DNA of 13,034 nucleotides from a virus (Duplodnaviria; Heunggongvirae; Uroviricota; Caudoviricetes), in IMG/VR virus record IMGVR_UViG_2654587571_000008, positions 1-13,034 of that record; one strand, written 5' to 3'. Below, piece by piece: positions 3,570 through 12,729 of the stretch (its first letter is position 1; every line of letters begins with the position of its first letter). Made by a program: the position numbers and the translations under genes. The notes beneath the pieces are model-generated. The model ran no database searches. It saw nothing but the letters and a program-made list of their open reading frames with translations, and had not been told where the DNA came from.

Positions 3570-4100
3570 TTATTTAATACATTCTTTTGCTTGCGCATAA
3601 TAAATTTTATGAGTATTAGCAAGCTTAACGAAGTTATACTTAACTGCCCCTAACAGGGTTCCAACTCTTGTATGCCCTTCCATTAAATGGAGCCCTGTTG
3701 TATTACTTTTCAGCAAAGCTCGATCTATAAAAAATGGTGGTTCGCACCATGTGCCAAAATTACACCAATGCGCTTTTATTTCATCATCCATAAATACATC
3801 ACCTTTACGGGTCATGTAATCTTCAACGACCTCATGCAAAAAATCAGGGCAAGTAGCATTATCCCCGATAGTTAAAAAGTTTTTAGTGGGAAGTTCAATC
3901 AATTTCCATTCAATTTGGTCAATATCAAGATCCCCATAAAGCTTCTGAAATCTGTCATCACCTACCAATCCATAATAAATCTCCTGAATTACAGGAGAGG
4001 GGGCAATGATAGAATATTGCTCACGAAGTATTCTTTCAGCCTCAGGAGCTTCAAATATGGTTCTTTCTGAGAAAATAGGCAGAAGATCTCGGTATAACAT
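3570..4100 (-). CDS. Hypothetical protein (176 aa), AT-rich cargo gene between Q and the lysis genes
   Basis: Long ORF in locally AT-rich DNA, with a GGGGAT Shine-Dalgarno upstream of the ATG and a strong terminator downstream. No family recognised. Confidence 0.5.
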   Translation of the reverse strand: MLYRDLLPIFSERTIFEAPEAERILREQYSIIAPSPVIQEIYYGLVGDDRFQKLYGDLDIDQIEWKLIELPTKNFLTIGDNATCPDFLHEVVEDYMTRKGDVFMDDEIKAHWCNFGTWCEPPFFIDRALLKSNTTGLHLMEGHTRVGTLLGAVKYNFVKLANTHKIYYAQAKECIK

Positions 4101-4132
4101 CCATATCCCCGTGTAAGAAAAAATAATTTAAC

Positions 4133-4152
4133 CCGCTCGGCTGCGGTTTTTT
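4133..4152. terminator. Short GC hairpin with flanking A and T tracts (candidate tR-prime, possibly bidirectional)
   Basis: CCGC tcggct GCGG followed by TTTTTT on the plus strand and preceded by an A-rich run. On the minus strand it sits about 40-55 nt downstream of the predicted late promoter. Confidence 0.35.
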
Positions 4153-4194
4153 GGACTTATCAACGGTAGACACACAAAGCCCATCGTTGAGAAA

Positions 4195-4223
4195 ATCTTA
4201 TCCATGTTTTTTGAAAAATGCAA
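4195..4223 (-). promoter_or_regulatory. Candidate late promoter (PR-prime-like) immediately downstream of the Q gene
   Basis: Minus strand reads TTGCAT, 17-nt spacer, TAAGAT (complement of 4218..4223 and 4195..4200), in the 154-bp gap between Q and the first late gene. Confidence 0.35.
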
Positions 4224-4254
4224 GCATCATGTCGCTATCTTTGTTGAAAATCAT

Positions 4255-5007
4255 TTATCTTGTCACTTTTCTCAATTGCGCTTCAGCATATGCTTCTTCC
4301 TGCCAGCACTTTGTAACCAGTTTATCAATGACGTCTGCATATCCTTTGTACCACTGATAATCCGTCAGGTCTGTTACCAGATTCTGGACATGACGTCGTG
4401 CCAGTGTGGTTGGTAAACGGCTAAATCGGTTTCCATTGCAACGCCCACAAATCTTATAAACAGGCGTGCCATGAAGCCGGGTTCTTTTTTCATCCAGGAC
4501 AATACCTTTACCCTTACATCCTCTGCACGCTGTGCTGACTTCTCCCTTACCATGACAATGCTGACATAGTTCCTTCACCCACTCTTCCTTGATAACAGAT
4601 TCCCCGTTTCTGGAGTGTTTCACCACTTCGCGCAATACATTATGAAATCCAGTACCAGCACAATGCTCACAGCGAGCCTTACTTGCCGCAGATCTGGAAT
4701 AATCAGCAAAGGCAAAATTCACAAGGTAAGGAATGATCTGTAGCCGGGTTTCTTCACTCAATTTGTTCAATGTCGGGTTATCCAGTGCCATCGCGTAATT
4801 GAGCAGACCTTCAATCGCAAACTGAGGATCCTGAACACCAACTTTTGCCAGGAATAAGGCAAAACCCAGTGGTGCTTTCGACTGCACCATCCCCTGCGCA
4901 GCCATCACATCTGTAATTGTTAAACCACCCGAGCCTGTCGCCGGTGCGTCATCACTCAATTTTGGAGATTTTGGGGAGTAATATTTTGGTAAGGCTTCAA
5001 GGTTCAT
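4255..5007 (-). CDS. Q-like late antiterminator with four CxxCxGxG zinc-finger motifs
   Basis: 250 aa with CEHCAGTG, CQHCHGKG, CRGCKGKG and CGRCNGNR. Sits directly upstream of the late promoter/terminator region. Good GGAGAA Shine-Dalgarno. Length agrees with the long Q-like proteins of E. coli prophages (recalled). Confidence 0.55.
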   Translation of the reverse strand: MNLEALPKYYSPKSPKLSDDAPATGSGGLTITDVMAAQGMVQSKAPLGFALFLAKVGVQDPQFAIEGLLNYAMALDNPTLNKLSEETRLQIIPYLVNFAFADYSRSAASKARCEHCAGTGFHNVLREVVKHSRNGESVIKEEWVKELCQHCHGKGEVSTACRGCKGKGIVLDEKRTRLHGTPVYKICGRCNGNRFSRLPTTLARRHVQNLVTDLTDYQWYKGYADVIDKLVTKCWQEEAYAEAQLRKVTR

Positions 5008-5020
5008 GCTCGTTCTCCAC

Positions 5021-6016
5021 TTACGCCAGTACGCCTATTGCCAGCGCACGATCGATAAAACGAAATATCAGCTCCAACTGGGAGCCATACATCTCTTCAA
5101 ATGCCACGGTATCCGCATGCAGCTCGTCGTGATGCTTTCTGCACAAAGGCAACACAAAGAGGTCATGCGCTTTTGTACCCATTCCCCCCTGACCGTGGCC
5201 TATCAGGTGGTGGGGATCATCAGCAAGCTTTCCACAACATGCACACGGCTGTGTCTTAACCCAGCGCGTGTACTTTTCATTAACCCAGCGGCGACGTTTT
5301 GGGCGTAACATAAAAGACTCCGGCGACTCCGGATCCACTTTCAGCGCCAGCACCTTTTTCGCTTTATCCTGGATAATGCTGGTGGCAGGAACCGAAGGCA
5401 CAAGGTCACTTTCCCGGGTGACAGACGGCACAACAGGCTTCGGTAATCTCAGTGCCTTACGGGCTGCACTTTCCGGTAAGGCATCCGCCAGGTCATTACG
5501 AATCAGCCACCAGCACAGTTCCGGCATTGTCACAACGTGACTGTCATCAAAACCGAGATCCCGACGCACAACAGACAACACCCAACGGGCACAGTTATCC
5601 GTTGCCATTGATTCCAGCCGTTCCGTGAACTGATCGCGCAGCTGGTTATCGCAGTGCCAGCAGAGACGGATTGCGCCCGGAGCGTGCCGCATTGTGGTCA
5701 TGTTCTCGCTGTGCCAGTCGGAATGAGGCCACTGGCAGCCTTTTTCACGAAGTAACCAGCTTTCAAGACATTCCACCCCACCAGCACGACGGATCACTGC
5801 CTCATTGCGGAACACGGCCCGAACGGCAGGATCATCCGCCAGCGGTTGTGATGCCGCGGGAACGGCACCACTGGCGAAAGATGAATAACGTTCCGGCTCA
5901 GGCTCCAGCAGGACACGCCCCTGCATAAACAGGGGCATCAGCTCTGAACCGGGCCTGAACAATACGATCCCCATACGCGGGGCAATTTCAGGGGTCAGTA
6001 GTGCTCTCACAGTCAC
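5021..6016 (-). CDS. DUF968-like prophage protein with a C-terminal Cys/His cluster (HNH-like)
   Basis: 331 aa. C-terminus PCACCGK...DPHH...GGMGTKAHDL...PLCRKHHDELH. Nin-region position between KilA-N and Q. Family assignment is from memory. Confidence 0.5.
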   Translation of the reverse strand: MTVRALLTPEIAPRMGIVLFRPGSELMPLFMQGRVLLEPEPERYSSFASGAVPAASQPLADDPAVRAVFRNEAVIRRAGGVECLESWLLREKGCQWPHSDWHSENMTTMRHAPGAIRLCWHCDNQLRDQFTERLESMATDNCARWVLSVVRRDLGFDDSHVVTMPELCWWLIRNDLADALPESAARKALRLPKPVVPSVTRESDLVPSVPATSIIQDKAKKVLALKVDPESPESFMLRPKRRRWVNEKYTRWVKTQPCACCGKLADDPHHLIGHGQGGMGTKAHDLFVLPLCRKHHDELHADTVAFEEMYGSQLELIFRFIDRALAIGVLA

Positions 6017-6846: not shown

Positions 6847-7236
6847 TCAGGCGGCTGCACCCGCCGTTTTCTCGTACTTACTTATAGTGATCTCGACCTT
6901 CCCTTCCGGGATAACCGGTCCCCACTCCACCAGCATTCTTTTCACCTGACTGTCGTCTTCCCACACACCCGCGTGGGTCAGGGCGTCAAACAGCGCCTTG
7001 TTATAGTTGTCCAGATCGCGGATCCGGTTATCCGGAGGAAACAACACGATCTCCACTGAAGCAGGTGCCGACGTTGGTTTTGGCAGACGACGTAACTGCT
7101 CAACTATTGCTGCACACGCCGCGCTCTGGAATTTGCGCCCCGCCGCGCTTATCAGGCTCTTACCTGCAAACGCCCCTTTGTTGGGGTGTCGCCAGTACGT
7201 GTTCACGCTGGGCGGAAAAGGCAGTATTAGCTTCAT
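6847..7236 (-). CDS. rusA: RusA Holliday-junction resolvase
   Basis: 129 aa. LPFPPSVNTYWRH and RDLDNYNKALFDALTHAGVWEDDSQV match the RusA signature, including the catalytic Asp cluster. Confidence 0.85.
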   Translation of the reverse strand: MKLILPFPPSVNTYWRHPNKGAFAGKSLISAAGRKFQSAACAAIVEQLRRLPKPTSAPASVEIVLFPPDNRIRDLDNYNKALFDALTHAGVWEDDSQVKRMLVEWGPVIPEGKVEITISKYEKTAGAAA

Positions 7237-7559
7237 ACTTTCAGGCCCCTCTCATGTAACCAGTGGGCTGCACGCAGCCTGGCGTTTGCCTCACCGGCAA
7301 GCAGTGCGCGGATAATCCCGACCGCCTCGCTGTCGTCGTCCTTCATCGCGGTATGAAGCGTTATCCCCCGGGCCACGCCACGCTTTATCGTGATGACGCC
7401 TTTTTTCTCCAGTGCTCGAAGATGCTCCACCGCTGCATTCACTGAACGGTATCCCAGCATGGTTGCCACCTCCTGATTGGTTGGCGGGAAGCCACGTTCT
7501 TTCTGGTAAGAAATCAGCATATCCAGCACCTGCTGCTGGCATTGAGTTAACGTCGTCAT
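7233..7559 (-). CDS. Standalone LexA N-terminal DNA-binding-domain homolog (no S24 peptidase domain)
   Basis: Residues 1-70 (LTQCQQQVLDMLISYQKERGFPPTNQEVATMLGYRSVNAAVEHLRALEKKGVITIKRGVARGITL) align with the recalled LexA N-terminus, followed by an unrelated 38-aa tail. ATGA overlaps with both neighbouring genes. Confidence 0.7.
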   Translation of the reverse strand: MTTLTQCQQQVLDMLISYQKERGFPPTNQEVATMLGYRSVNAAVEHLRALEKKGVITIKRGVARGITLHTAMKDDDSEAVGIIRALLAGEANARLRAAHWLHERGLKV

Positions 7560-9650: not shown

Positions 9651-9989
9651 CTATTTCCCTGAATTTACGACGAAACTGTTCGAGCGGACTGAAGCATTCA
9701 TGCTCATAACCTTCGCGGAGGTAGATAACCCGTTGTGTTTCCGGCTCCCAACGAATGACTCTGACGGGCACTCCGTAGTGATCTTTGAACCAGCGGTTAA
9801 CTTGTCGCAAAGGACTGTCTCCTTCTGCCGGTTGAAATCACCCACAGCCCACTCTGCAAAGCTGTGGGTTACAATTTCCCTGTCACCTGGTACATTCACT
9901 GCATAGCAATATTCCACCTTCGCTTTTCCACCCGGTACAGGAAGCGCAATCAGTTGCGAGCGACGGTAGTGTGTTGTTAAACTGTTCAT
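9651..9989 (-). CDS. Hypothetical protein (112 aa) between the CII-like and initiator genes
   Basis: ATGA overlap with the upstream CII-like gene and AGAGG upstream of the following gene. No family recognised. An overlapping plus-strand ORF (9634..9906) makes the strand assignment uncertain. Confidence 0.35.
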
Positions 9990-10543
9990 GCGTTAGTTTC
10001 TCCACAACCAGAAGCAATCGACGCCACGACGCCCGGAGCTGCACACTCGCGGGCGTCATTACTTTCTGAAATGCAAAAGATTTTGTAGACCAGTGCTGCA
10101 TGCTCCTGCAGCTTCGAAATTGAGAGATACAGCTCGTCGTTAATTGCTGTCTTCTCATGCGGTTCCACTACACCGTCTTCGATTGCTGAACGAATCTGTT
10201 TTGAATAACTGCCGATCTGTTCAATGACTTCCAGCAGACGCTGGTTAATATCGGCGTTGTCCACATCCTCGACGTCAGGAAGAGACACAAATACGCCATT
10301 TGCAGACTGCGCCACAGCATCAGCAATGAAGTGAGTGCCACCAGCACGCTGTAAAACCATTGCCCATCCCAGCGGAAAAATCTGATCGCCATCTGCACGA
10401 AGGCGGTTGAATAAAGCGTTCTCTGTTACATCCAGCCAGTCAGCGGCTTCAGCGTAACCACCCGGCAACGCCGCGATAGTTTTTCTGACAGCTTTCACGT
10501 ACCACTCAGGCTGTTTTTCTATTTTCCAGTGATGCTTACCCAC
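9986..10543 (-). CDS. CII-like phage regulatory protein (185 aa)
   Basis: Start placed at GTG 10543, with AAGGAG 6 nt upstream (the track ORF begins at 10648 and would overlap cro). [16 protein letters not shown] resembles CII-type regulators (from memory). Confidence 0.45.
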
Positions 10544-10565
10544 GGCTATCTCCTTAAAACTGTGG

Positions 10566-10814
10566 TTACTTTTCATCTGATGAATCTTTAATCTTTTGAA
10601 AAATATCTGGACGTAATTTTTCTTTTGATATGCCAGTGGTCTTTTCAATGAATATCGAGAGCTTTGCAGGGGGACGCTTTTCTCTGTTCAACCAGTTCCA
10701 GACATGTTGTTGCTTTACTAAATGACCGCTGCTGGCTGTGAGCTTCCGAGCCAATTCTGATTGACCACCAGCCAGAGCGATTGCCTCCGATAAGGCTAAT
10801 TGCTCAGGTGTCAT
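10566..10814 (-). CDS. Cro-like HTH repressor
   Basis: 82 aa with an HTH (QSELARKLTASSGHL). Divergent from the cI-like gene across an operator-rich intergenic region. GGAG Shine-Dalgarno. Confidence 0.7.
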   Translation of the reverse strand: MTPEQLALSEAIALAGGQSELARKLTASSGHLVKQQHVWNWLNREKRPPAKLSIFIEKTTGISKEKLRPDIFQKIKDSSDEK

Positions 10815-10949: not shown

Positions 10950-11636
10950 GTGAAAACACTGGCAGAACGATTAAAGATAGGTAGAGAGAAAGCTGGCATG
11001 AGCCAAGCTCAACTAGCTGAAAAAATTGGACTTTCACAACAATCTGTAGCCAAAATAGAGAATGGCGAAACTCTACAACCGCGCAAAATTAAAGAAATTG
11101 CAAAAGTTTTAGGTGTATCACAAAAGTGGTTACAACTTGGTATTGAAGATAACGCATCCATACCTGATCTTGTTGTAAAAGAAGCAGAAAGCACCGCATT
11201 AGACCCCGATATTTTCGTAAACATTCCTGTTTTAGATGTCGAGTTATCGGCAGGTAACGGATGTCTGGCTGAAATAGTTGAATCAGCTATTGACTGGTTT
11301 CCGTTAAGAAGAGCAGATTTGAGAAAATCTGGCGTATGTGCATCTAATGCCAAGATCGTAAAAATATGGGGGAACAGTTTATTACCGGTTCTCAATAATG
11401 GAGATCTTGTTGCCGTTGATATTTCTCAAACCGTTCCTATTCGTGATGGCGATCTTTATGCCGTACGAGATGGTGTATTGCTAAGGGTTAAAATACTTAT
11501 CAACTTACCTGACGGTGGCTTGATTCTTAGAAGCTTCAACAAAGATGAGTACCCAGATGAAATACTCACCTTTGAAGATAGACGAGCCAGAATTCATGTT
11601 ATAGGTAGGGTATTCTGGTCATCGCGAACTTGGTAA
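10950..11636 (+). CDS. CI/LexA-type prophage repressor (HTH plus S24 peptidase, autocleavable)
   Basis: GTG start with AGAGAGGGA upstream. N-terminal HTH (MSQAQLAEKIGLSQQSVAKIENGE), an Ala-Gly cleavage site (LSAGNG), catalytic Ser (WGNSLLP) and Lys (LLRVKIL). Confidence 0.85.
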   Translation: MKTLAERLKIGREKAGMSQAQLAEKIGLSQQSVAKIENGETLQPRKIKEIAKVLGVSQKWLQLGIEDNASIPDLVVKEAESTALDPDIFVNIPVLDVELSAGNGCLAEIVESAIDWFPLRRADLRKSGVCASNAKIVKIWGNSLLPVLNNGDLVAVDISQTVPIRDGDLYAVRDGVLLRVKILINLPDGGLILRSFNKDEYPDEILTFEDRRARIHVIGRVFWSSRTW

Positions 11637-12509
11637 TGCATCGAAAAGCATTTCTTCAGAAATAATTTTAAGTTTTGCACCATTATCATCCCTATAAGAT
11701 ATAGCTTTTTCGATCTTCCTTCCGTGACTTGAGAATTTCCAATCACGGGAGGAAAGCGTCCCAATTACTAAAAAATCCAACTTTTGAGTAATTCCACTAC
11801 TGATGTTCCCACCAGCATTTTTAATCAAATTTTCAACTACGGCTCTCTTTCCTGCAACAAAAGTGCCTGTAAGACAATAGGTTTTACCCTCTAACTCTAT
11901 CGAAGCCCCTACATCAATAGGCAGCCTGGTCGCCAAACCATCCACCACCCCACTTTCCAAGTCACATCCTGTGAAGTCTACTAATGCCTTATGTAGAGTT
12001 AAACTCTCATCTTCAGTAATAACCCCATCTTTAAGAATTTCCTTTACAAGTGCATAAAGTTTTTTTCCTGGGTAGTTGTTCTTCAAAGCTCCATTTTGCT
12101 CAAGCCACCAATTAAGATATCTTATTTCTTCTTGAGTTAAGTTCCGATCAGCAATTAATCCTTTACATAGTCCATTAAGTAAATGGACATCTACATCCTT
12201 GGAGTAAAAATCAATTTCAGGGATATCAAGAATTTCCCTCTGTATTTGGAGAAGGCTATTTTTAAGGTCATCACGTTCTTCTGATGTGATTATTCCATCC
12301 GCAAGAATATCCGACACCCGTGCTGATAGACTTTTTATAACTCCATTATTGATAATCTGCTTTGCTTCAAGTAACCATGTATCTAAGTAAAGAACCTCCT
12401 CTTCACGGACAACTCCATCTGCAATGATTCCATCAATGATGCTAATCAAGTTAGCAAATAACTTGTCCCGGTTCTGTGTGTAATTAAAAGCGTAAAGCGC
12501 GTCTTCCAT
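11619..12509 (-). CDS. Uncharacterised protein with four N-terminal DG-x-I-T-x-EE repeats (TerB-like?) and a C-terminal BRCT-like domain; candidate superinfection-exclusion/defence gene
   Basis: Start placed at ATG 12509, with AGGAGG 5 nt upstream. C-terminus GKTYCLTGTFVAGKRAVVENLIKNAGGNISSGITQKLDFLVIGTL...AKLKIISEEMLFDAL follows the BRCT pattern of NAD-ligase C-termini. The 3' end overlaps the cI-like gene by 18 bp. Confidence 0.6.
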   Translation of the reverse strand: MEDALYAFNYTQNRDKLFANLISIIDGIIADGVVREEEVLYLDTWLLEAKQIINNGVIKSLSARVSDILADGIITSEERDDLKNSLLQIQREILDIPEIDFYSKDVDVHLLNGLCKGLIADRNLTQEEIRYLNWWLEQNGALKNNYPGKKLYALVKEILKDGVITEDESLTLHKALVDFTGCDLESGVVDGLATRLPIDVGASIELEGKTYCLTGTFVAGKRAVVENLIKNAGGNISSGITQKLDFLVIGTLSSRDWKFSSHGRKIEKAISYRDDNGAKLKIISEEMLFDALPSSR

Positions 12510-12559
12510 ACAACCTCCTTTTTTTGATAATCCTTGCACTCCTTGGCTACTCGTTCAAA

Positions 12560-12625
12560 CCACATAAAGTTGTTGACAACATTCAAAACCACAACTAAAT
12601 TACAACTTAAAGGTGTTAAAACAAC
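12560..12625 (+). promoter_or_regulatory. Left operator/promoter region with a PL-like rightward promoter
   Basis: Consensus -35 TTGACA (12573..12578), 17-nt spacer, -10 TAAATT (12596..12601). An imperfect dyad AAGTTGT-TG-ACAACAT (12567..12582) overlaps the -35. Operator motifs are shared with the right operator region. Confidence 0.5.
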
Positions 12626-12697
12626 GAACAGGCAGGACGCCCACGAAGTAGCCGCCTGGGGCATATGAAGTCCAGGATGATTCGTTAGCAACAAAAA

Positions 12698-12729
12698 AGC
12701 GCCCTACAGGACGCTTAGCTCTTTAACAA
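12698..12729 (+). promoter_or_regulatory. Candidate antitermination (nut-like) site: boxB-like hairpin followed by an rrn-type BoxA
   Basis: Hairpin AGCGCCC-uaca-GGACGCU (12698..12715, one mismatch), then GCTCTTTAACAA (12718..12729), identical to the recalled core of the E. coli rrn BoxA. It lies in the leader between the promoter and the first gene. Confidence 0.45.

Follow-up and report, generated by a model that had tools for sequence, protein, structure and literature searches.

Defence genes placed exactly in the cI-proximal slot of temperate phages have precedents in RexAB of phage lambda and BstA of prophage BTP1 (PMC8585504). The RexAB slot lies between cI and OL/pL and is transcribed in the lysogen (PMC8585504). 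BstA is highly expressed in lysogens, acts at the replication sites of foreign phage DNA, and has a cognate self-immunity element, i.e., aba (Owen et al. 2021; PMC8585504). The protein has an N-terminal DNA-binding domain and a domain of unknown function. A third system of interest is PDC-S48, a PADLOC candidate nominated since its relatives occur inside BREX, DISARM, or type I RM loci (Payne et al. 2024 preprint). Neither PDC-S48 nor BRCT is mentioned by name in this preprint and its supplements, and BRCT or TerB is not mentioned in DefensePredictor. The isolated BRCT of RFC1 binds DNA with a Kd of ~10 nM and prefers 5'-phosphate ends (PMC9293009).

Here, a window of 13,034 nucleotides was analysed, i.e., the whole stretch of DNA taken from a tailed phage record (IMGVR_UViG_2654587571_000008). 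The gene under study encodes a 296-aa BRCT-domain protein and occupies the same genomic slot as lambda RexAB, the cI-N hotspot. However, RexAB consists of two proteins, a sensor and a membrane ion channel, which are co-transcribed with cI, whereas the BRCT protein is single and soluble (maximum Kyte-Doolittle 19-residue window, 1.5) and its gene lies on the opposite strand. BstA, like the BRCT protein, is a single protein tied to a prophage repressor locus with no obvious enzymatic effector, but it has a KilA-N-like domain instead of BRCT and is co-directional with cI. No sequence relationship to BstA was found, and the PADLOC search gave only PDC-S48.

The first-pass annotation had recognised no described defence system in this architecture, and the search agreed with it, as the sole match was this candidate and was partial. 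Residues 119-251 were aligned to positions 239-377 of the 411-position profile (E 2.4e-7) and no full-length match to the HMM was obtained. The shared stretch corresponds to the second helical unit and the first half of the BRCT domain. Such partial matches were found in 67 of the 79 family members, with a best E of 4.7e-14. Neither in the window nor in any examined locus was the gene surrounded by a BREX, DISARM, or type I RM system; all of these are lysogeny modules of prophages. In literature searches on TerB/BRCT prophage, BRCT anti-phage, PDC-S48, and the RefSeq accession, no published characterisation of the BRCT-protein family was found.

The gene and its overlap with cI

The features of the locus are listed in Table 1. 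The same CDS is annotated in RefSeq as a BRCT domain-containing protein (WP_000389078.1), and the product matched phrog_3989 over its full length (E 1.5e-128). The ATG at 12509 is invariant across 12 homologous loci, whereas the sequence containing the upstream GTG (12539) is variable. From this conserved start, the product was assigned as 296 aa.

Table 1. Features of the BRCT-protein locus, in positions of the window.
Feature	Position	Strand	Remark
cI-type repressor, HTH_3 + Peptidase_S24	10950..11636	+	co-inherited partner
CDS of the 296-aa BRCT-domain protein, stop included	11619..12509	-	ORF 11619..12539
Convergent overlap of the cI and BRCT-protein CDSs, 18 bp	11619..11636	.	stop-inclusive CDSs
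BRCT domain, residues 206-290	11640..11894	-	
Helical unit 2, residues 99-186	11952..12215	-	tandem duplicate of unit 1
Helical unit 1, residues 8-98	12216..12488	-	two helix-loop-helix hairpins, acidic
Shine-Dalgarno AGGAGG	12514..12519	-	4 nt before ATG
Putative BRCT-gene promoter	12530..12558	-	assigned from phylogenetic footprint
OL-type operator 15-mer	12559..12573	.	abuts putative -35; centre ~-43 from predicted start site
pL-like early promoter TTGACA-17-TAAATT	12573..12601	+	divergent from BRCT gene; invariant in 12-locus footprint
Second OL-type operator, palindromic	12602..12616	.	overlaps pL start region

The gene had been described as carrying its own AGGAGG ribosome-binding site and as converging on cI with an overlap of 18 bp. 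Both descriptions were correct, the overlap being counted with the stops of both CDSs. The AGGAGG is conserved in the 12 loci, i.e., G253, G256, and G257 are invariant, and A252, G254, and A255 are at least 90% conserved. In homologous loci the two CDSs overlap by 9, 15, or 18 bp, and no terminator was found between cI and the BRCT gene. From this gene geometry, it is reasonable to infer that the transcription of cI and that of the BRCT gene collide. The surroundings are AT-rich as had been claimed, with a GC content of 0.35-0.40 over 11600-12600 against 0.50-0.58 in the replication region; cI is no less AT-rich.

The dN/dS of the BRCT gene was 0.055-0.066 (taken only where dS was unsaturated), i.e., the gene is under purifying selection. 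On the strength of this selection and the full-length conservation of the protein, the reading as a degenerate ligase fragment or pseudogene was rejected.

A duplicated helical region joined to a BRCT domain

TerB domains (PF05099) are found in the Ter stress cluster and in the TerB protein of Shango. Four repeats of ~40 aa, named TerB-like, had been noticed in the N-terminal region of the BRCT protein. The repeats themselves are borne out: in this region a four-helix unit with two (A/S)DG...E hairpins has been duplicated in tandem. Local alignment of residues 1-100 with 101-200 scored 108, whereas shuffles scored 27 +/- 5 (z = 16.5). In profile-profile comparison by hhalign, unit 1 was aligned to unit 2 over 80 columns with a probability of 99.75% and an E of 2.6e-27. 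The hairpins pair in an A-B-A-B order, i.e., the first with the third (E 4e-20) and the second with the fourth (E 6e-14), and the cross pairs gave 1e-5 to 1e-7. In the AF2 model, the helices of unit 1 span residues 10-28, 36-48, 56-69, and 76-93, and its hairpin loop motif is (A/S)DG-x-(I/V)-x-x-x-E. The pI is 4.3 for unit 1 and 4.5 for the acidic N-terminal region. A short form of the family, ~210 aa, is composed of unit 2 and the BRCT domain.

The name TerB-like stands at the level of the motif, as the BRCT protein shares with PF05099 the helix-loop-helix hairpins bearing an ADG...E loop, but it fails at the Pfam threshold. The window protein had no PF05099 match at E<1, and the family consensus scored 20.2 bits, below the threshold of 24.4. 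Matches at E<0.1 were found in 13 of the 79 members and were weak (best 9.5e-5), with the scores of the family staying under the threshold. Comparison with solved TerB-family structures gave the helical region no specific match, and it may or may not share the TerB fold.

The C-terminal domain is a BRCT domain of the RFC1/LigA class, in agreement with the BRCT pattern seen earlier. The profile search placed PF00533 above its curated threshold (29 bits against a cut-off of 21.3; E 1.3e-6), and 74 of 79 homologs matched this family as well, with a best E of 1.4e-9. The region has a beta-alpha-beta-beta-alpha-beta-alpha fold that resembles solved BRCT domains, and it is basic. Among solved relatives, the BRCTs of RFC1 and LigA ranked first in sequence comparison and near the top in structural comparison. 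The phosphate pocket of BRCT domains is formed by S/T-G after beta1 and a Lys at the N-terminus of alpha2 (PMC10386641). T214-G215 and K265 occupy these positions, judged from residue positions in the sequence. R222 aligns with an Arg of RFC1, so that the TG...R...K positions match those of RFC1. T214, G215, R222, and K265 are at least 90% conserved among the 79 homologs, which are 26-82% identical. Between beta3 and alpha2 there is a family-specific SRDW loop (residues 254-257), which is invariant.

The class of RFC1 (p140) and LigA binds 5'-phosphorylated DNA ends or nicks, and binding of DNA ends is predicted for the BRCT protein by alignment to it. In RFC1 and LigA, however, an enzyme carries the BRCT as an accessory domain, whereas here it is joined only to the helical repeats and has the SRDW loop. 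No enzymatic domain was recognisable in the 296-aa protein. The homologs are not LigA, as the adenylation, OB, Zn, and HhH domains are missing and the LigA match is limited to the BRCT region. The ligase names given to some homologs are over-annotations.

Distribution and association with repressors

The family is large, i.e., ~1,600 clusters of 50% identity at E<=1e-10, and its hosts are enterobacterial, Vibrio, Pseudomonas, and metagenomic phages. Megablast of the BRCT gene gave no match among cultured phage genomes, and tblastn was needed to reach phage K139 and the Pseudomonas phages. Distant loci were found with ten-sequence alignments, which were reordered with the distant member first.

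All of the ~45 enterobacterial loci examined have the gene facing an orthologous cI in convergent orientation. The two proteins diverge in step, their identities falling from 100% to ~56% (r = 0.96, 53 loci). By megablast of complete E. coli genomes, 47 carry the BRCT gene and 48 carry cI, and the pairing looks obligate in this species. The cI of the unmatched genome is only 83% identical, so a diverged copy of the gene could escape megablast there. This co-occurrence and co-divergence also fit a role within the immunity switch.

In distant relatives, the gene lies on the same strand as the repressor and directly downstream of it. The repressors beside them are of the S24 type (ten loci), the P2/186-CI type, or the HTH-only type, and an integrase comes next in several loci; in three of them the gene was located downstream of the repressor and upstream of the integrase. 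In one further locus, the gene lies two small ORFs upstream of a SIR2-like protein. Nine viral loci had no recognisable repressor among the neighbours tested. Adjacency to a prophage repressor holds whatever the repressor family, either convergent or co-directional just downstream, and free-standing members were found almost only in prophage lysogeny modules.

The Vibrio cholerae phage K139 carries a true homolog of similar length, Orf2 (NP_536630.1), with 32.6% identity over 95% of the query (E 1e-38). The orf2 gene has a 906-nt CDS encoding ~301 aa. The gene order is cI-orf2-glo-int, behind an annotated PL and lysogenic start site, and glo is annotated as involved in phage exclusion. Its gene comes immediately after cI in a lysogenic operon and adjoins glo, and copies exist in the kappa family too. 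However, it is co-directional with cI, and K139 is a P2-like phage with another repressor. The K139 and kappa copies are annotated as orf2, as BRCT domain-containing protein or, wrongly, as NAD-dependent DNA ligase. The repressor-adjacent slot named in the first-pass annotation is strongly reinforced by these relatives, which lambdoid, P2/186-like, and K139 phages carry in their lysogeny operons. From the repressor adjacency in enterobacterial and distant loci, K139 included, we conclude that the gene is a lysogeny-operon accessory (moron) gene of temperate phages.

The module of helical unit and BRCT was also found in fusions, i.e., with RNase_T DEDDh 3'-5' exonucleases, with an SF1 helicase (AAA_11/AAA_12) plus MTES_1575 nuclease and DUF3320, and with HhH2 plus BRCT. 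All of these are DNA-transaction contexts. Chromosomal relatives, i.e., DEDDh exonuclease-[unit]-BRCT proteins, are placed amid housekeeping genes.

Upstream region and proposed role

The 15-mer ACAACTTTWAGGTGT occurs six times with up to three mismatches, against 0.7 expected. Sites are found at OR (10882-96 and 10906-20) and, as had been claimed, upstream of the BRCT gene, where the two OL-type operators are located. The putative promoter of the gene has a -35 TTGAAC (12558-12553), a 17-nt spacer, and an extended -10 TGcAAGGAT (12538-12530). The -35 and -10 are conserved in 12 loci with 69-100% protein identity, in which the spacer is fixed in length and variable in sequence. The promoter would be weak, with 7 of 12 consensus positions plus TG. 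The consensus scan detected no promoter on the minus strand before the gene, the putative site being below its threshold; the assignment comes from the phylogenetic footprint. The pL leader had no Rfam match as a put- or nut-like RNA, and its folding energy was ordinary (z = -0.45).

It is quite possible, although short of probable, that the protein is a lysogeny accessory product, expressed in lysogens, whose BRCT domain binds 5'-phosphate ends or nicks with exclusion or defence as the result. Sensing or blocking of the 5'-phosphorylated ends or nicks of incoming phage DNA would be the most likely activity. The gene would be expressed in lysogens, here from its own weak promoter. The -35 abutting an OL operator has the geometry by which cI activates PRM in lambda, and by this analogy expression may depend on cI. 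In distant relatives, expression would come from co-transcription with the repressor. The BRCT pocket would then bind foreign phage DNA, incoming or in replication, at 5'-phosphate ends or nicks, and the integrated prophage would expose no such ends. Binding may block end sealing and circularisation in competition with LigA or, alternatively, abortive infection may be triggered through the helical units. The outcome would be superinfection exclusion or defence. As there is no effector domain, this killing or blocking step is conjecture. We consider it unlikely that the protein is an effector-less antiphage protein in which a eukaryote-type BRCT pocket senses 5'-phosphate ends or nicks as a generic mark of invading DNA and cI at OL drives expression. 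Infection would in that case be stopped by blocked end sealing or by signalling via the duplicated helical domain, which would be of a kind not described before.

Other roles have to be weighed against exclusion or defence. The gene could be a component of the lysis-lysogeny switch, i.e., a sensor of DNA damage or ends that tunes the repressor level or prophage induction, for example through antisense or collision effects that its transcript exerts on the convergent cI, or through action on cI, Int, or RecA. The close pairing and co-divergence with cI speak for it, as do the 9-18 bp overlap lacking a terminator, the OL operators shared by the putative promoter, the placement between cI and int in P2-like phages, and the standing of BRCT domains as classic modules of the DNA-damage response. 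However, the gene accompanies at least three unrelated repressor types, some of which are not SOS-cleaved (Phage_CI_repr, HTH-only). Its orientation varies, and because both orientations occur, antisense control cannot be a family trait. Co-inheritance is explained by the overlap alone, since overlapping genes resist separation by recombination. To our knowledge, such a gene has no part in the switches that are known in detail (lambda, P22, P2, and 186), and a switch component is an improbable reading.

A role as lysogenic-conversion factor appears rather more doubtful. Acting on host DNA metabolism, such a nick- or end-binding protein would alter repair, recombination, or damage tolerance in the lysogen and would not target phages. 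It would agree with the chromosomal exonuclease fusions among housekeeping genes, with RFC1 and LigA as nearest solved relatives of the BRCT, and with a gene position that implies expression in lysogens. But the near confinement of free-standing members to lysogeny modules, the embedding of PDC-S48-nominated relatives in BREX, DISARM, or RM loci, and the lack of a catalytic domain argue against it. Very unlikely is an early lytic or anti-defence protein, which OL-bound cI would repress in the lysogen, leaving its production to infection or induction. Its action would be to protect the ends of phage DNA from RecBCD by capping, like Gam, or to disturb host LigA or nucleases. Because OL operators are interspersed in the promoter region, repression is a priori as plausible as activation; the N-terminal half is acidic like some DNA-mimic inhibitors, and the BRCT is of the end-binding type. 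However, the operator lies 5' of the putative -35 and leaves the -10 and start site uncovered. Distant relatives are co-directional right behind the repressor, and in K139 the gene follows a promoter annotated as lysogenic, an arrangement implying that gene and repressor are expressed together.

That temperate phages carry defence systems in the cI-proximal slot is proven by examples such as RexAB and BstA. The gene placed there in this large family has a BRCT domain of the DNA-end-binding type as its only recognisable functional element. BRCT domains are central to eukaryotic DNA-damage signalling, and no tie to a characterised bacterial defence system was found in the sources searched. The predicted cI-dependent promoter at OL would be a separate point on lambdoid regulation. 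An antiphage role without effector, if confirmed, would make the protein the first immune sensor of bacteria that is based on a BRCT domain, and its promoter the second cI-activated one in a lambdoid immunity region. The gene is a conserved prophage gene and a good candidate for a new defence or exclusion protein. If it is defensive, the PADLOC candidate PDC-S48 would gain a characterised relative, and the family would show how a protein free of enzyme domains could discriminate and stop foreign DNA.

The gene and its family

The minus-strand ORF ending at 11619 has two possible starts, i.e., GTG 12539 and ATG 12509. The ATG, which gives a 296-aa product, is preceded by AGGAGG at 12519-12514 and is also the RefSeq start of WP_000389078.1 ('BRCT domain-containing protein'). 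In the alignment of the upstream region from 12 homologous loci, the ATG and its Shine-Dalgarno sequence were invariant, and GTG 12539 lay within variable sequence. The 296-aa ORF with its own ribosome-binding site, as read in the first-pass annotation, is thus backed by RefSeq and by this invariance, and the CDS coordinates agree with the 18-bp overlap that it had described. The AT-rich setting was also found, i.e., GC of 0.35-0.40 over the gene versus 0.50-0.58 in the replication region, and cI is equally low. Strong purifying selection acts on the gene, with dN/dS of 0.055-0.066 in pairs with measurable dS; in the remaining pairs dS was saturated and dN was 0.14-0.25.

As a whole, the window represents a lambdoid prophage; among its products are a Q antiterminator, a holin, RusA, KilA-N and methyltransferases. 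Within its early operon, flanked by RusA and a Dam-like methyltransferase, a 108-aa protein (7233-7559, minus strand) has the LexA DNA-binding domain alone (PF01726, E 2.9e-19), without the S24 cleavage domain; it could be an uncleavable LexA mimic sitting on SOS boxes. A 176-aa ORF without Pfam match (3570-4100, minus strand) was placed in an AT-rich island (GC 0.36-0.39), which has the Q antiterminator (4255-5007) on one side and an N6/N4 methyltransferase with the lysis genes on the other, i.e., a late-operon moron slot.

Coordinates of the features, in the window unless another locus is named
Feature	Position	Strand or orientation	Remarks
BRCT-protein CDS	11619..12509	-	ORF, RefSeq annotation
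cI-type repressor	10950..11636	+	HTH_3 + Peptidase_S24 (Pfam); convergent with BRCT gene
cI/BRCT-gene CDS overlap	11619-11636	convergent	18 bp
cro-like gene	10566..10814		far side of cI from BRCT gene
cII-like gene	9986..10648		far side of cI from BRCT gene
Operator 15-mers, cI-cro intergenic region	10882-96, 10906-20
Operator 15-mers upstream of BRCT gene	12559-73; 12602-16		12602-16 palindromic
Presumptive pL	12573-12601	+	TTGACA-17-TAAATT, good promoter directed away from BRCT gene
Unit + BRCT fusion, protein P0236
Unit + BRCT fusion, locus L011	5485-7221
Unit + BRCT fusion, locus L012	5377-6513
Unit + BRCT fusion, locus L014	4175-5383

The protein matched phrog_3989 of PHROGs at full length, to which no function is assigned there. 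By exhaustive phmmer search, 2,857 cluster representatives were found at E<=1e-3 and 1,596 at E<=1e-10. Two main architectures were seen, i.e., about 295 aa with two helical units and BRCT, and about 210 aa with one unit and BRCT. Homologs at 69-83% identity were found in Citrobacter, Serratia, Salmonella, Klebsiella, Enterobacter and others. Among 5,426 complete E. coli genomes the gene was present in 47, every copy chromosomal, and the cI gene in 48; in the 48th, cI is only 83% identical, so a diverged copy of the BRCT gene there would escape megablast. Homologs are named 'NAD-dependent DNA ligase (LigA)' in several sources and 'DNA polymerase' in one. The sharing is limited to the BRCT domain, and these names look like propagated over-annotation. 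Literature searches found no paper on the family.

Helical units and BRCT domain

The BRCT domain recognized in the first reading was confirmed by Pfam at residues 206-290 (29 bits, threshold 21.3). When the family profile was compared with PDB sequences, the BRCTs of RFC1 (E 2.2e-8) and LigA (5.7e-7) came first, and the TG, R and GrK columns of the family lined up with ITG, IER and GTK of RFC1. The aligned residues of the window protein, T214, G215, R222 and K265, are each at least 90% conserved among homologs. The 5' phosphate is reportedly contacted by their RFC1 counterparts, in work of Kobayashi and colleagues from 2010. With a pI of 8.8 the BRCT half is basic, and the protein has no membrane-spanning segment. 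In BRCT domains the phosphate pocket is defined by S/T-G following beta1 and by a Lys where alpha2 begins (PMC10386641). The RFC1 BRCT alone binds DNA at about 10 nM and prefers 5'-phosphate ends (PMC9293009).

The AlphaFold2 model, built with 79 homologs of 26-82% identity (mean pLDDT 94.3, pTM 0.91), showed eight helices in the N-terminal 190 residues, arranged as two four-helix units. This half is acidic, with a pI of 4.5 and a net charge of -15. Residues 1-100 and 101-200 aligned at z = 16.5 over shuffles, and the two units matched in profile comparison with a probability of 99.75% (E 2.6e-27). Hairpins were alike inside the units too (E 1e-5 to 1e-7), and over the four they follow an A-B-A-B pattern (first with third, E 4e-20; second with fourth, E 6e-14). 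Because of this resemblance and pairing, the four repeats claimed before are real. Their TerB-like nature is supported at the level of the loop motif. TerB was not matched in the window protein at E<1 by Pfam search, the family consensus scored 20.2 bits against a threshold of 24.4, and weak TerB matches were found in 13 of 79 members (best 9.5e-5). Searches of the N-terminal half against PDB by Foldseek (best E 0.94) and by profile-sequence comparison found nothing. Since TerB scores were sub-threshold and the PDB searches empty, this half is treated as a duplicated helical domain, which has the TerB loop motif in common and no solved counterpart.

The unit + BRCT module was also found in fusions. 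In P0236, a 2,042-aa SF1 helicase (AAA_11/AAA_12), it is placed at the C-terminus, and a MTES_1575 restriction-endonuclease-like domain and DUF3320 are also present. In several proteins it follows an N-terminal RNase_T domain (DEDDh 3'-5' exonuclease), and in others it precedes HhH2 and a second BRCT. The exonuclease fusions of Myxococcales and Clostridia MAGs are chromosomal, among housekeeping genes. All these settings are DNA transactions, which fits a BRCT of RFC1/LigA type. Because the partners are DNA-related, they argue for DNA, not phosphoprotein, as the ligand.

Residence in lysogeny modules and predicted control

The repressor-adjacent slot was borne out far beyond the window. In each of the enterobacterial loci examined (about 45), the gene and an orthologous 228-aa cI converge, mostly with an overlap of 9, 15 or 18 bp, and the flanking replication and lysis modules vary. 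A gap of 29 to about 330 bp was seen in L094 and in the truncated or frameshifted copies L045 and L060. The existence of such copies indicates that the gene is dispensable for prophage carriage. The 92%-identity variant of L045/L046 ends at 241 aa, about 150 nt short of cI, and the ORF of L060 is cut at about 198 aa. Over 53 loci, the identities of cI and the BRCT protein to the window copies drop together from 100% to about 56% (r = 0.96).

The arrangement differs in distant relatives (32-49% identity). In L015/L016 the gene is on the same strand, after a different HTH_3+S24 repressor, and likewise after an HTH_3+S24-type repressor in L061, L108, L112, L114, L117, L149, L153, L154 and L159. 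A P2/186-type CI (Phage_CI_repr) is upstream in L111 and L173, a short HTH protein in L147, and an HTH_3 protein two genes upstream in L150. The integrase is the next gene downstream in L111, L147 and L150, so the gene is inside a repressor-X-int lysogeny operon. In Vibrio cholerae phage K139, the homolog is orf2, with 32.6% identity across 95% (E 1e-38), and the order cI-orf2-glo-int lies downstream of the promoter and start site that the record assigns to the lysogenic operon. In Pseudomonas phages the short form is located close to the integrase. In nine viral loci, no recognisable repressor was found among the testable neighbours. Because distant relatives adjoin differing repressor types or integrase, the linkage is with the lysogeny module itself and not with any single repressor family, and this residence is conserved in at least three temperate-phage lineages.

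Two of these neighbourhoods have further content. In K139 (3953-5271 of locus L180), orf2 is directly upstream of glo, which encodes a periplasmic protein annotated in the record as involved in phage exclusion. In the 186-like prophage L173 (6344-7492, plus strand), CI, the BRCT gene and two small ORFs are followed by a SIR2_2-domain protein and then a 591-aa ORF, so that a likely defence cassette shares this lysogeny-operon slot.

The operator motifs described upstream of the gene were found again, and the cI-cro region has them too. The 15-mer ACAACTTTWAGGTGT was observed six times with up to three mismatches, against 0.7 expected. A copy with two mismatches, AAAAGTTTTAGGTGT, at 11102-11116 (plus strand) within the cI coding sequence, could be either an intragenic operator or a chance match. 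Across the 12 loci (69-100% protein identity), operators and pL were invariant. On the gene strand, TTGA(AC/TT) at 12558-12553 and TG(C/T)AAGGAT at 12538-12530 were conserved, with a spacer of varying sequence and a length of 17 nt throughout. These elements are read as a putative weak promoter of the BRCT gene with an extended -10; it fell under the threshold of a consensus promoter scan. The operator at 12559-12573 adjoins the putative -35, its centre at about -43 relative to the start predicted near 12523. With respect to PRM, lambda cI at OR2 holds the same position. By this analogy, cI may activate, not repress, the gene. No convincing terminator was found between the convergent genes, so overlapping antisense transcripts are possible.

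Downstream of pL, a leader segment (12628-12716) is conserved in some of the homologous loci. On the minus strand it has terminator-like hairpins, one at 12716..12697 with a T-run after it and one at 12644..12628. It had no Rfam match, and its plus-strand folding energy is ordinary (z = -0.45).

Possible roles

The first-pass annotation did not recognise the architecture as that of a described defence system. In PADLOC, its sole match was partial and to a candidate, PDC-S48 (residues 119-251 against profile positions 239-377 of 411, E 2.4e-7), which 67 of 79 family members matched (best 4.7e-14). Such candidates were chosen for embedding in BREX, DISARM or type I RM loci and are untested according to their authors (Payne et al. 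2024 preprint). Conceptually, the nearest precedent is BstA, which consists of one prophage protein. It has a DNA-binding domain at its N-terminus and no evident enzyme, is in tight linkage with the repressor locus, is strongly expressed in lysogens and acts where foreign phage replicates (PMC8585504). Its authors describe the cI-N interval as a hotspot which also houses RexAB (PMC8585504).

A defence role is plausible but unproven. The BRCT gene would be expressed in lysogens, and its protein would bind 5'-phosphorylated ends or nicks and exclude or abort superinfecting phages. It could act without an effector by competing with LigA at cohesive ends or nicks of entering DNA, which is attractive since such ends are lacking in the integrated prophage. 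Alternatively, a host factor might be recruited by the helical units, or these might control the BRCT domain. The chief competing explanation is a role within the lysis-lysogeny switch itself; the near-obligate pairing with cI and their co-divergence speak for it, whereas the presence of the gene with unrelated repressor types and in both orientations speaks against it. Roles in host DNA metabolism, or in an early-lytic or anti-defence function, are possible.

The observation of the first-pass annotation, with its BRCT, repeats and slot, is confirmed, its TerB likeness being supported at the level of the motif, and its interpretation finds partial support. Widespread and uncharacterised, this lysogeny-operon gene has an unusual architecture and is a worthwhile experimental target.
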